In this document: one piece after another, positions 34,405 through 40,812 of the stretch
How the letters are laid out: the number at the start of each line of letters is the position of its first letter
How positions within the stretch are numbered: position 1 is the first letter of the stretch
Program-made: the position numbers and the translations under genes
Source: Candidatus Hydrogenedentota bacterium
GTDB lineage: Bacteria > Hydrogenedentota > Hydrogenedentia > Hydrogenedentales > SLHB01
Assembly (NCBI GenBank): GCA_963745075.1
Contig: CAVUWV010000036.1
Span: forward strand, 1-64,000
Direction: 5' to 3'
Length of the DNA stretch: 64,000 bases
Notes under the pieces: model-generated
The model's input: the letters and a program-made list of their open reading frames with translations, nothing else
The model's database searches: none
Told to the model about the DNA's origin: nothing

Positions 34405-35193
34405 ATGACGGATACCATCCTCGATCAAATCCAAATCCAACTCGATGCCATCGAACGCGACGAGGGCGTGCGGATTGTCTATGCCTGTGAATCGGGGAGC
34501 CGGGCCTGGGGGTTTGCGTCGGAGGACAGCGATTATGACGTGCGCTTTCTTTACGTTCGTCCGCCGCAGTGGTATCTGTCAATCCAGCGGGGACGCGACG
34601 TGGTCGAGCGGCCCATCAGCGAAGGGCTGGATATTGGCGGCTGGGATTTGCCGAAGGCGTTGCACCTGTTCCGGAAATCTAACCCGCCCCTGCTCGAATG
34701 GCTGCAGTCTCCTATCGTTTACCGCGAATGGGGACAAGCCGTCCCGCGACTACGAGCCTTGCTCGATGATTACTACTCGCCGATCTCGTGCATGCACCAC
34801 TACCTGCACATGGCCAGCGGCAACAACCGTGAGTACCTGCAAAGCGACGAAGTCTGGGTGAAGAAGTACTTCTACGTGTTGCGTCCCGTACTCGCCTGCA
34901 TCTGGATCGAACGCGGCCACGGTGTGGTGCCCACTGAATTCGCGAAACTCGTTGAACGTGTCGTCGATGACTCTAAAGTTCGCACCGCCATCGACGATCT
35001 CATGGAGTGCAAACGCGCCGGCCATGAACTCGATCGCGGCCCGCGCATTCCGGTCATCTCCGATTACCTCAATGTCCAACTCGACCGCCTTACCGCCGAA
35101 CACCAGGGCCGCGCCAAAACGCGGGACACGGCGGCGCTGGATCGGTTGTTCCTGGATACGCTGATCGAGGCGTTCGGCGCGGAGTTGGCGTGA
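34405..35193 (+). CDS. Predicted nucleotidyltransferase (YcgL-like, DNA polymerase beta superfamily)
   Basis: YACESGSRAWGFASEDSDYDVRFLY, GWDLPKAL, KSNPPLLEWLQSP, KKYFYVLRP. Confidence 0.88.
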   Translation: MTDTILDQIQIQLDAIERDEGVRIVYACESGSRAWGFASEDSDYDVRFLYVRPPQWYLSIQRGRDVVERPISEGLDIGGWDLPKALHLFRKSNPPLLEWLQSPIVYREWGQAVPRLRALLDDYYSPISCMHHYLHMASGNNREYLQSDEVWVKKYFYVLRPVLACIWIERGHGVVPTEFAKLVERVVDDSKVRTAIDDLMECKRAGHELDRGPRIPVISDYLNVQLDRLTAEHQGRAKTRDTAALDRLFLDTLIEAFGAELA

Positions 35194-37212: not shown

Positions 37213-37542
37213 CTACTGTAAAAAGACGATAGTCAGCAACAGGTTGGAATCCTCCTTGGCTCGAAGGGCATGAGGCTCGTTCGGCGCGAGATGGATGAGC
37301 TGTCCCGCTTTCAAGGTTTCCGATTTCCCCATAGTGTCGATTTCAATGGTCCCGGAAAGACAGTGAATGACAACCGGCGCGGCGACTTGGTGTTGATCGA
37401 TGGTCTTACCGGCCGAGAGCGCCATCCGAATCAGCTCCATATTGTCCGTTTTCACGACCGCTTTCGTCCCGCCCGAGGGTAAGTCGTCTCCCCAAGTGTC
37501 CAGGTCCACGACCTCGCCCGGGGCCGCATGATGCAATGCCAT
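37213..37542 (-). CDS. Cupin domain protein
   Basis: HQVAAPVVIHCLSG...LKAGQLIHLAPNEPHALRA; GGAGG RBS. Confidence 0.85.
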   Translation of the reverse strand: MALHHAAPGEVVDLDTWGDDLPSGGTKAVVKTDNMELIRMALSAGKTIDQHQVAAPVVIHCLSGTIEIDTMGKSETLKAGQLIHLAPNEPHALRAKEDSNLLLTIVFLQ

Positions 37543-37725: not shown

Positions 37726-37904
37726 CCACTATATGTAGGATCGGAGATTGTTGCACGCGGTTTACCACAATGGCGCGGATGGCCCGTATGGCATCAATTT
37801 ATAGGGGCAATGTCACATCAAGACACATTTTATGCGAATTTCCGGGATCGGGAATTTTTTTGAAAAACACACTTGACCCTATTGACAACCCCTATATGTT
37901 GTGG
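37726..37904. promoter_or_regulatory. Three NrdR-box-like 16-mers (37726-37741, 37792-37807, 37889-37904)
   Basis: CCACTATATGTAGGAT, CATCAATTTATAGGGG and CCCCTATATGTTGTGG compared with the NrdR consensus acaCwAtATaTwGtgt. Confidence 0.55.
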
Positions 37905-37910
37905 TAAACT
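37882..37910 (+). promoter_or_regulatory. Near-consensus sigma70 promoter with an extended -10, driving an ORF-less transcript
   Basis: TTGACA (37882-37887), a 17-bp spacer ending in TGG, then TAAACT (37905-37910). AT-rich upstream tract. Confidence 0.78.
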
Positions 37911-37916
37911 CGCTTC

Positions 37917-38114
37917 AGTGTCTGGAGCCAAACGTGTGGATCTGGTCACGACTTCATCGCACCGTGAAGTCATTCCGCAGCCCAGGCCATATAGGATCCA
38001 CACAAGACGCGAGCTGTCTGAGGCCAACGACCGCAGCCCAATGGTTTCAGAAGATGTACGCTCGAGACCGTGACCCTCTTGCGCCAAGATACACGGAACA
38101 CGGTTTCAGGCACT
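37917..38114 (+). ncRNA. Unidentified ~200-nt structured non-coding RNA (6S RNA not excluded)
   Basis: Begins at the predicted TSS. The 5' AGTGTCTGGAGCC pairs (with G-U) with the 3' GGTTTCAGGCACT. Three internal stems, no RBS-supported ORF, and a downstream hairpin. Confidence 0.65.
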
Positions 38115-38123
38115 CCCCGCACT

Positions 38124-38163
38124 GAGCGGCGGGTTCCCAAGGCCCGCCGCTCCCTCCATTTTT
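38124..38163 (+). terminator. Hairpin closing the ncRNA unit; may also serve the convergent gene
   Basis: 10-bp stem GAGCGGCGGG / CCCGCCGCTC followed by CCTCCATTTTT. Confidence 0.6.
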
Positions 38164-38232: not shown

Positions 38233-40542
38233 TTACCGGCCGAAGATATCCGGGCCGGGGGGGAAGGAATCGTAGGGGCCCGCGGAAAAGCTGAGGATGT
38301 CGGCGAAATTCGGGAGGGCGGGGTCGCTGCGCTGGATGCGCCATTCGCCTTCCTGGTTGGTGAAGGTGAGCCAGACTTCCCCACGCTCCGTGCGGGGGAA
38401 CCACGCCGTTTGCCCGGCAAAGCGGCCGGTCGGGTCGCTGATCGCGGCGCCCGTGAACCGGCAATACAGTAAGACGCGGACTTCCCCCTTCGCGTCGTAA
38501 TCGGCGAAGTCCCATTTCCGAAGTTGGCGCGTCATCTTGCAGGCCGAGTACCGTTCGAAAAACCATTGGTACGCCCGTTTCGCGTACTGGAACTGCCACC
38601 ACTGGGGATCGCGGTAGTCGGTGCCGTAGAGGTCCATGACCCCGTCGAGATTCTCGTTGGTGAAGTCGTCGTCCCACTGCTCGATGCGGGCAATGACTTT
38701 TTTGGCGACATCGCGATGGTCGTCGCTGACGCCTTCATAGGTGGGCCACCATGCCTGAGACTCGGGCAGGATACTCATGGGACCTTCGAGGGGGCGGCTC
38801 TGGGCTTGGGCAACCAGATCCGTCAGCACGACTTCTTCATCGATCCGGCTTTCCACCCAACTGAACGCCAGATAGTCGCCGAAATTCACGGTCCCTTCGT
38901 AGGGTTCTCGTTCGTTGGTCAATGCCGTCACGGCATACGCGACGGACTGGGCGGGGTCCACGGACGGGTCGGTCCAGCTTCGCTCGTCGATATTCTTGGC
39001 GACCTCTGTATACTCGCCCGTCGGGTACAACCGCTTGAAGACGTTGTACGACACGTCTCCCTCGCGGAACGGCCACGTCAACGTCACGGTCGTGTCGCGC
39101 CGCTCCGCGTGAACGTCGCGAACGGGCGCCGGGAGCGACGGAATAACAAAAGTCTGTTTCTCGTAGTGGCTCTCGCGCGTGTTCATGACAAACACGCCGC
39201 GTCCGGCCCGCACGATGAAGGCGGAACCCGACCCATCCGGGCCGAGATACTGGTCCAGCAATTCCGTCCAACCCTGGGCCGAAGGCACACTTGCCGGTCT
39301 TACAATTCGGGGCAAGGCCCCGAGCACGTCGGACGGCGCATAGGGTGACATGATAGGCACCCAATAATGACGGCCTGAATTCGGGATAAGTTCCACGATC
39401 TGGCCGGGGCGTTCCATGCCGTAGGCGCCTTTGAGCATAAGCCCCTCATCCCGCACGCCGTCGAGATCGCGCAGGTTGAGCTGGAACTCCTGCGGTGTGC
39501 GCGAAACGCCCAATTGATAGGCCACCCGGATCTTCTCCGCCACGAATTTCTTGTCGGCGATCAACCCGTCCGCGGCAATCTGCCGCAAAACGGGCAAGAT
39601 CGCTTTCGCCCAGTACTGCACGCGGTCCCCGGTCCAGAGATCGCGGTCTTCTGGAAAGGAATAGGCGCAGGCGCCGCCCGACGCGCCGTTTAATACCATG
39701 GCCCGGTACAACGACGGCGGCATCCCCGGTCCGTCGGCCGCGATGCCAAACTCGCCGGGTTCAACCAGGCCGGCGTGCACGTACCATTGCGATGTGGGGG
39801 CGACACCCCACTGTGCGACCGCGCCCTCCAACCACAAGCCCATAAGCGCACCCTGTTGTGCGATGGTCGATCCTTGATCGTGCCCCACCAGTGGGACCAC
39901 GTACGCGCTGCACGCGCGAAACGTATCGAGCAGGGGGCGGCACTGCGCGTTAGCCATCACGTGCAGCCACCCCGTGCCGTCCAGCCGGACTGCGACGAAC
40001 CGGCCGTAACTCGCTGCCAAGTTGGTCGCGCCCGACAGCCACCCTACGTTCGGCGGCATCGCGATGTCATCACCGCCACTGAACGCGTAATACTCGTCAA
40101 ATGCGAGATCGGTGACGTTGATTCCCTTGACGCACGTGAATTGGGCCACCAAATCTTCCAGCAGGTTAAGCGGATAAACTCGCTGCGGATTGGCGTCCGC
40201 AACGTGGACCACCGTGGGGATTTCCGCGTTTTGCAGCGCTTTGAGCAGGTTCGTAAACCGCAGATGGCGCGATTCCGCGTCGGAACCCTGCATGTCGACG
40301 ACGAGCGTTGCGTAGGGTTTCATCCCGTTGGGCAGAGACGCCCACGCGCCGATCACGCGTTGGGTATACACCTCCGTATCGCCCGAACCGCTACCCGGCG
40401 CTTGGAAAAGGAAGAGCGGGTGATAGGCGCTGATCTCTACCGTCAATGGAGGGTAACTCTCTGCACTAACGGTACTTATCGTCAACACAAGAACAAGACA
40501 CACCCCCGCTGCCCGAACGATGAAATCCTTCAAAACCGTCAT
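38233..40542 (-). CDS. Large secreted hypothetical protein: possible GH98-like N-terminal module, FN3-like domain and NTF2/SnoaL-like C-terminal domain
   Basis: Signal peptide. FN3-like VTLTW..YNVFKR..WTD..YAVTAL and C-terminal ENLDGVMDLY...GEWRI. The resemblance to GH98 is weak (GLWL..WG..WY, G...YSF). Confidence 0.55.
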   Translation of the reverse strand: MTVLKDFIVRAAGVCLVLVLTISTVSAESYPPLTVEISAYHPLFLFQAPGSGSGDTEVYTQRVIGAWASLPNGMKPYATLVVDMQGSDAESRHLRFTNLLKALQNAEIPTVVHVADANPQRVYPLNLLEDLVAQFTCVKGINVTDLAFDEYYAFSGGDDIAMPPNVGWLSGATNLAASYGRFVAVRLDGTGWLHVMANAQCRPLLDTFRACSAYVVPLVGHDQGSTIAQQGALMGLWLEGAVAQWGVAPTSQWYVHAGLVEPGEFGIAADGPGMPPSLYRAMVLNGASGGACAYSFPEDRDLWTGDRVQYWAKAILPVLRQIAADGLIADKKFVAEKIRVAYQLGVSRTPQEFQLNLRDLDGVRDEGLMLKGAYGMERPGQIVELIPNSGRHYWVPIMSPYAPSDVLGALPRIVRPASVPSAQGWTELLDQYLGPDGSGSAFIVRAGRGVFVMNTRESHYEKQTFVIPSLPAPVRDVHAERRDTTVTLTWPFREGDVSYNVFKRLYPTGEYTEVAKNIDERSWTDPSVDPAQSVAYAVTALTNEREPYEGTVNFGDYLAFSWVESRIDEEVVLTDLVAQAQSRPLEGPMSILPESQAWWPTYEGVSDDHRDVAKKVIARIEQWDDDFTNENLDGVMDLYGTDYRDPQWWQFQYAKRAYQWFFERYSACKMTRQLRKWDFADYDAKGEVRVLLYCRFTGAAISDPTGRFAGQTAWFPRTERGEVWLTFTNQEGEWRIQRSDPALPNFADILSFSAGPYDSFPPGPDIFGR

Positions 40543-40812
40543 ATACCGAATTGTATGCAACCTGCTAATCACTTCACAAGTGGACTGTATACGCCGTTCC
40601 GAATGCCGAGGCGCCGATCCATGGGGCGGTCGTTCCACCTAAGGTAAATGTCCGAAACCATTGAAAAAGATGCAGTTGAAACATCGTTTTGCGCGTTTGT
40701 AAGCCGTTTGTTGGGTCGAACCAACCTTGAATCATCCCGCAACCCTCTACTACAATGCGCCCTTCCTACTCGTCTTTTCTCGCACTCCAACTGACGGAGA
40801 CGTTCGATCAAC

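Follow-up and report, generated by a model that had tools for sequence, protein, structure and literature searches.

In the genome of a Candidatus Hydrogenedentota bacterium (GCA_963745075.1, designated here as G000, and its family as f1), a gene for a noncoding RNA (ncRNA) lies on the plus strand of contig CAVUWV010000036.1, between a divergent gene for a cupin-domain protein and a convergent gene. Coordinates are positions in the window, i.e., the whole 64,000-nucleotide (nt) stretch of this contig that was analyzed, unless another contig or locus is named. An earlier note on this DNA had described a stand-alone ncRNA of ~200 nt with its own promoter and closing hairpin, located in a region without a credible open reading frame (ORF) and followed by a convergent gene. 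The gene is real, and the promoter, the stem with three G-U pairs, the three arms, and the closing hairpin were all confirmed in position (Table 1). Its size had been underestimated: the gene measures ~245–249 nt including the terminator, and 151–259 nt over 71 homologs.

A stand-alone gene represented in RNA libraries

A trans-encoded small RNA (sRNA) is expected to have its own promoter and terminator and no ORF, and this is what the locus presents. A 74-codon ORF on the plus strand (37901–38125) starts within the −10 region, and the alignment of homologs contains insertions and deletions of all sizes; a coding role is therefore not credible. The three G-U pairs lie in the 13-base-pair (bp) closing stem, P1. 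A hairpin resembling that of the terminator (38124–38152) occurs at one other place only in G000.

Twenty-four sequencing runs were listed; 23 hold part of the stretch, and 21 are recorded as RNA, from 21 studies. When four metatranscriptome runs were aligned, eight of nine contigs fell within 37927–38159 and the ninth in the neighboring gene; one contig of 236 nt aligned over 231 nt of this interval. These contigs attest to presence in RNA libraries, not to strand, ends, or level. The promoter and most of the flanks have no contig cover, which is not counted as evidence because the runs had been chosen for holding the stretch. Contigs from three of the four RNA runs stop at 38118–38119, just beyond the closing stem (in one case with a loose end that resembles adapter sequence), and one contig continues through the terminator hairpin. 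The stops possibly represent a processed 3′ end or a loss at the hairpin during assembly.

Table 1. Features of the ncRNA locus and its neighbors (window coordinates)
Feature	Position	Strand	Remarks
Upstream NrdR-type box	37726–37741	.	163 nt before the promoter box
−35 hexamer TTGACA	37882–37887	+	
NrdR-type palindromic box	37889–37904	.	Fills the promoter spacer and overlaps the extended −10 TG
−10 hexamer TAAACT	37905–37910	+	17-nt spacer; extended −10 TG at 37902–37903
ncRNA gene	37917–38163	+	5′ end deduced from promoter position; covered at 37927–38159 by a 236-nt contig from an RNA library
P1 closing stem	37917–37929 with 38102–38114	+	95% of cells paired; two-sided change in 8 of 13 pairs
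Arm 1	37934–38003	+	P2 37934–37942/37995–38003; P2b 37944–37947/37985–37988; P2c inner hairpin 37950–37956/37965–37971
Unpaired repeat 1, CCGCAGCCC	37975–37983	+	
Arm 2	38011–38063	+	P3a 38011–38014/38060–38063; P3b 38018–38026/38042–38050
Unpaired repeat 2, terminal loop of arm 2	38031–38039	+	Its CAGCCC core is conserved more widely than any other loop motif
Arm 3	38068–38096	+	5-bp stem 38068–38072/38092–38096; large conserved loop
Putative seed in arm-3 loop	38073–38086	+	Perfect 14-nt complement of the clpX 3′UTR site G000:C24:388542–388555
Single-stranded C-rich linker	38115–38121	+	Conserved
Terminator-like hairpin	38124–38163	+	38124–38133/38143–38152, then C/T tail; sequence conserved across the phylum
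Cupin-domain protein gene	37213–37542	−	Upstream divergent neighbor, outside the element
Gene with weak GH98-like match	38233–40638	−	Downstream convergent neighbor, outside the element

Elsewhere in the window, an RlaP-family nucleotidyltransferase (PF10127) is encoded at 34405–35193.

Conserved three-arm fold

The plus strand of 37915–38116 folds better than all of 200 shuffled sequences (z = −3.62), and the minus strand does not (z = +0.31). In a MAFFT alignment of the homologs, two-sided change was found in 38 of the 61 pairs, a count exceeding that of each of 500 shuffles and of every slid control. The model-fitted alignment, which leans towards structure, gave 49 of 61; in a tree-aware G-test on this alignment the eight top-ranking pairs were all predicted ones, and only one of them was unequalled in 30 null alignments (next E 0.27). 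The strongest covarying pair is 37937–38000 in arm 1, and the 5-bp stem of arm 3 is nearly invariant and therefore shows little covariation. Distant families have forms of 151–194 nt in which arm 1 is reduced to a short element. The invariant letters of the RNA fall in its unpaired parts. Conservation of the three-arm fold is thus supported by compensatory change among homologs, by which the earlier note had proposed to judge the RNA.

Two details of the fold described there did not hold. The helices of the three arms covary, but the inner hairpin of arm 3 (TCTTG/CAAGA) shows no compensatory change and has its first pair broken in 7 of 27 sequences; as it is not conserved, the arm-3 loop is left open. 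The alternative rod-like fold can form in G000 only; its helices are 61% and 70% paired, and the commonest pair types in them include no two-sided change.

A new RNA family of the phylum

A search of Rfam 15 gave no match at gathering score at the locus (best E 4.6, terminator only), and a search of 11 divergent homologous loci gave none. The RNAs of the signal recognition particle, RNase P, and the transfer-messenger system are each encoded on other contigs of G000, with scores above the family cut-offs; identity with these three, whose signatures had not been seen in the sequence either, was rejected. Identity with 6S RNA was likewise rejected: the 6S models gave no score at the locus even at E 10, a canonical 6S RNA (RF00013), the sole 6S match in G000, lies elsewhere (C21:117505, 61.7 bits), and the rod pairings lack covariation. 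In the 3′ end of this 6S RNA (L001:1670–1685), the closing strand complements 9 nt of the C-rich linker region (38114–38122), but it is paired within 6S. A riboswitch or cis-acting leader was discarded because no co-directional downstream gene of one function is conserved; downstream genes vary and are often convergent. These results do not support the suggestion of a divergent 6S RNA or a switch. The proposal of an unannotated, possibly new ncRNA gains support from the lack of an Rfam match, from conservation across the phylum from promoter to terminator, from the compensatory changes, and from the RNA-library contigs. The RNA belongs to no Rfam family and forms a new family within a known functional kind.

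A covariance model built from 27 sequences matches 116 of 135 Hydrogenedentota genomes and 77 of the 86 of good quality. The gene is nearly always present in single copy, as in G000; the few second matches are short fragments, and three best matches are weak (E > 1e-4). By BLAST, the stretch from promoter to terminator was found, whole or in part, in 48 of 61 related genomes. One genome (G042) has a clear copy that was recognized by its promoter pattern, though missed by the covariance model, and two genomes outside the order matched neither. Phyla beyond Hydrogenedentota were probed with one promoter pattern. Applied with the 5′ end to the GTDB collection, it returned 60 loci, mostly titled Candidatus Hydrogenedentota: 55 score with the model, 3 are cut by contig ends, and the remaining 2, from records titled Proteobacteria and Bacillota, match in the promoter alone. 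In one record titled Bathyarchaeia (L160), a contig breaks off within a typical copy that has a bacterial promoter; this contig is probably mis-binned. True copies made up 3 of 61 pattern loci in metagenomes, and none of 61 pattern loci in viral contigs contained the RNA.

The neighbors of the gene vary among genomes in identity and orientation, so that the gene is a stand-alone one and not a leader. Outside f1 the commonest neighbor, in either orientation, is pntAB (transhydrogenase), found at 13 loci (L092, L095, L097, L098, L105, L108, L113, L118–L122, and L129); it is upstream and divergent in some families and downstream in three loci of family f3. The site beside pntAB is probably the ancestral location.

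NrdR-type boxes at the RNA promoter and elsewhere

In the available text of PMC9110341, NrdR is described as a repressor of ribonucleotide reductase (RNR) genes and often of its own gene. The box in the spacer of the RNA promoter fits the published NrdR consensus (as given in the available text of PMC4009431), matching all 8 core positions in 55 of 71 homologs and having one mismatch in 13 more, and TTGAC or TTGAA precedes it in 69 of the 71. Only 2 of 434 sigma-70-like sites in G000 carry a box with the whole core (an overlapping match masked the promoter of the RNA itself), so that promoters in general do not share the box. In G000 it also lies ahead of nrdR and of the RNR gene. Among 19 RNR-type ATP-cone genes, 9 are preceded by it, three of them by paired boxes 31–32 bp apart, and none of the coding controls contained it. 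A member of the NrdR regulon is expected to have a consensus box overlapping its promoter in a genome that has nrdR, and both are present here. A second box is located 42–196 nt upstream in 46 of the 71 homologs.

Other boxes in G000 precede ftsK (L043; two, 72 bp apart), fliQ (L040), nrdR (L042), and genes for an M23 peptidase (L046), an L,D-transpeptidase-like protein (L051), an amidase (L054), and a lytic transglycosylase (L055), as well as a cell-division cluster (L048; two, 72 bp apart). The box at the fliQ promoter is found again in two other families, in genomes G042 and G060. These boxes before cell-division, envelope, and flagellar genes suggest an enlarged NrdR regulon. A promoter nearly identical to that of the RNA, with its box, is also present at L038:1995–2500 (G000:C15:230916), with no clear long ORF or Rfam match downstream; the region is possibly another small RNA or small gene.

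Complementarity between the arm-3 loop and the clpX transcript

A 12-nt stretch of the arm-3 loop recurs once in G000, reversed, 48 nt past the clpX stop codon and ahead of the terminator, and extends to the perfect 14-nt complement of Table 1. Among 11,028 start-codon and 3′ untranslated region (3′UTR) windows of G000, which were taken from a rough gene caller, that of the clpX 3′UTR ranks first (−31.5 kcal/mol), and a 14-nt complement was reached by 3 of 300 shuffled loops. Co-folding of the RNA with the site gives a net gain of ~8 kcal/mol in G000.

We found clpX in 120 of 135 genomes plus one more and compared 83 clpX 3′UTRs, 19 of which were scored with the G000 loop standing in for that of the genome's own RNA. 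A complement score of at least 10 was obtained for 29 of 41 f1 genomes (16 of 27 genera) versus 3 of 42 others, and among these three only G041 resembles the same site; for G009 the score refers to a neighboring stretch, although a bulged form of the site is present. In most cases 23–28 nt separate the 10-nt core of the site from the conserved terminator downstream, and the remainder of the UTR is divergent. A filter that admitted one false row (G023) and dropped G022, G025, and G125 left 22 haplotypes, drawn from 26 of 42 loci; the commonest core change among them (5 of 22) is A to G opposite U, by which a wobble G-U pair is retained. Both strands have changed with retention of the pair in G035 (C-G to U-A) and in G014 (A-U to U-G). 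In several genera the site is predicted to fold into a hairpin exposing its 5′ half, an arrangement that would suit loop–loop contact followed by displacement. A conserved unpaired seed together with a conserved mRNA complement, as expected of a base-pairing sRNA, was found in f1 and in one genome of family f6 only. Several families keep the loop without the site, which makes clpX a later partner and implies an older partner of the loop.

Other candidate partners of the arm-3 loop were set aside. Complementarity to the helix-15 loop of 16S rRNA exists in G000, but of the 64 genomes in which 16S was matched, the majority carry a different loop. Of 20 other perfect 13-nt complements inspected in f1, 18 fall at unrelated places; one that precedes a conserved small gene of G122 is lacking from G000, and a loose pattern of site plus terminator occurs in chance-level counts. 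Candidate sites at fliO, fliD, and motA in G000 also score well as arm-3 complements.

CAGCCC repeats

The CAGCCC-type motif occurs once, twice, and three times in 13, 45, and 13 of the 71 RNAs, respectively, with a mean unpaired probability of 0.77. In family f11, in which the arm-3 loop is in place at 0 of 12 loci (L109–L118, L124, and L125), the motif is displayed in 7–8-nt hairpin loops. A site in the leader of an RNA-recognition-motif protein gene was rejected as a partner because it is not kept in homologous loci. At two f11 loci (L110 and L125, with variants in L111 and L112), the 3′ strand of the arm-2 hairpin and the next bases match ~18 nt of the helix-15 region of G000 16S rRNA, which may be chance. 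CsrA is encoded in 1 of 11 f11 genomes; these are one lineage and provide no test of a linkage with loss of the arm-3 loop.

Proposed mode of action and alternatives

We lean, with modest confidence, towards an NrdR-repressed, Hfq-independent, trans-acting base-pairing RNA whose target in f1 is the 3′ end of the clpX mRNA; a search of five genomes detected no Hfq in any of them. NrdR loaded with dATP/ATP would occupy the box observed in the spacer and repress the promoter, and a fall in dATP would cause the RNA to be made together with RNR. The closing stem, joining the 5′ and 3′ ends in a fold supported by the covariation above, would hold two or three arms that display C-rich single-stranded loops. 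In f1 the arm-3 loop would pair over 12–18 nt with the site ~25 nt before the terminator of clpX mRNA, and where that site forms its own hairpin, loop–loop contact would come first and strand displacement would follow. The duplex may alter the stability of the transcript 3′ end, most simply through cleavage that removes the protective terminator, and ClpX output would thereby track the status of deoxynucleoside triphosphates (dNTPs). The effect may instead run in the opposite direction, with the clpX tail acting as a sponge of the RNA. The CAGCCC repeats could be further seeds or protein sites.

Several results weigh against this model. The clpX site is absent from 12 of 41 f1 genomes and from nearly all other families, and f2, f5, f8, f9, f10, f12, and f13 retain the arm-3 loop without it. 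The older partner was not found in the target searches made, and in the low-GC family f13 no arm-3 target is common to three genomes (30 of 37 sites read). The change in G035 could equally serve a small local hairpin, and A to G is a common transition anyway. The tree-aware G-test passes one pair on the fitted alignment and none on the MAFFT alignment (best E 3.4). Complements of the CAGCCC repeat do not exceed a reversed-pattern control in 54 genomes and are not enriched near start codons. Box pairs 31–32 bp apart were found at RNR-type promoters only, and the second box of the RNA gene, 42–196 nt off, is not at the approximately three helix turns preferred by the NrdR tetramer (available text of PMC9110341); since this spacing does not suit the tetramer, we infer, rather than conclude, that NrdR represses the RNA gene.

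The CAGCCC repeats might mean that the RNA sequesters an RNA-binding protein in the manner of CsrB and RsmZ, the clpX pairing being a family-specific means of inactivating or turning over the RNA. The motif is short, near-invariant, mostly unpaired, present in one to three copies, and shown in hairpin loops in f11, where it outlasts the arm-3 loop, and the searches for a conserved mRNA complement of the repeat, which found none, point the same way. One to three copies are few compared with ~18 in CsrB (available text of PMC8383071), however, and CsrA, present in 47 of 61 genomes, is not the partner because the motif is not GGA; a GGA sponge was also rejected directly, as three of the four GGA in the RNA start in stems. 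Of 132 occurrences of the same-sense motif, only 11 fall in the loop of a leader hairpin, and the genes concerned share no function. We regard protein sequestration as unlikely. It is improbable that the RNA is itself a sponge, soaking up a small RNA that is liberated from the clpX 3′UTR and has a G-rich seed, and catching other G-rich sRNAs by its CAGCCC loops. The clpX tail does resemble a 3′UTR-derived sRNA in having its 10-nt core near a sequence-conserved terminator between divergent flanks, and binding of G-rich tracts to C-rich sRNA loops is known for RsaI (available text of PMC8383071), but the arm-3 loop predates the clpX site and has a wider distribution, and no conserved RNA with a complement of CAGCCC was found.

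Two further explanations appear very improbable to us. A second 6S-like, RNA polymerase-binding RNA, or a two-state switch, would account for the size, the closing stem, the near-universal single copy, and the occurrence of parts in RNA runs of many studies, and the rod can form in G000; besides the evidence against 6S identity given above, the fold is a multi-arm junction rather than a central bubble, and no downstream gene is conserved. The clpX complement could, in an equally remote case, be due to chance, with the RNA serving as a structural element or scaffold whose loops make tertiary or RNA–RNA contacts. The 14-nt match alone has P ~0.01, and the 5′ arm of the terminator could pair with the repeat at 7–8 of 9 positions, as read from the alignment. 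This pairing shows no compensatory change, however, and 16 genera have retained the clpX site, with changes that preserve pairing, amid diverging flanks.

A broader proposal, which we offer as a tentative and rather doubtful one, is that this phylum-wide, housekeeping-like RNA may be a hub that serves an enlarged cell-cycle NrdR regulon as its post-transcriptional arm, and that it would couple dNTP supply to ClpXP proteolysis through kissing with the clpX 3′UTR while its CAGCCC loops engage an RNA-binding protein.

Relation to known systems and significance

As far as the available text of PMC8383071 describes them, the C-rich-loop, Hfq-independent sRNAs of Bacillota (RsaE, LhrC, RNAIII, and RsaI) share with the present RNA redundant C-rich unpaired motifs in loops, in single strands, and near the terminator, as well as independence of Hfq and loop–loop initiation, and the icaR 3′UTR is bound by RsaI. 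In comparison with that account, the present RNA has no sequence relation to them, and carries CAGCCC in place of UCCC, without directing this motif to ribosome-binding sites; its 5′–3′ closed multi-arm fold, NrdR-type operator, and putative clpX partner also set it apart. The protein sponges CsrB, CsrC, and RsmZ (same text) likewise carry variable numbers of a short motif in their hairpin loops; the present RNA differs from them in a motif other than GGA, in having one to three copies, and in its long mRNA complement. In its size of ~200 nt, its closing stem, and its one copy per genome it resembles 6S RNA (RF00013), from which it differs in model score, in lacking a covarying rod, and in the presence of a true 6S RNA elsewhere.

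Among 3′UTR sponges and sRNAs derived from 3′UTRs, the SroC–GcvB and chbBC–ChiX pairs are Hfq-dependent. The present case is like them in that a conserved noncoding segment of an mRNA is complementary to an sRNA seed (available text of PMC8383071). It is also like the known NrdR regulon in its palindromic consensus box, which overlaps the RNA polymerase site and is found at the RNR and nrdR promoters, and unlike it, so far as the available texts of PMC4009431 and PMC9110341 go, in that the controlled gene encodes an RNA and the partner boxes are 42–196 nt apart rather than ~31. The literature searched yielded no RNA gene under an NrdR box, no RNA motif or regulatory RNA described in Hydrogenedentota, and no pairing of an sRNA with a UTR of clpX mRNA; supplements were outside the search, and motif tables of RNA-discovery studies there could hold the RNA. 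That literature offered no precedent for two features of the RNA: the NrdR-type operator of its promoter and its putative, conserved pairing with the 3′UTR of clpX.

The RNA, occurring in 77 of 86 good-quality genomes, is a marker of the phylum. The loop and its clpX site offer a named, directly testable RNA–RNA pair with natural compensatory variants. If the proposed mode of action is true, an NrdR-controlled RNA that pairs with the tail of clpX mRNA would tie the status of DNA precursors to regulated proteolysis.
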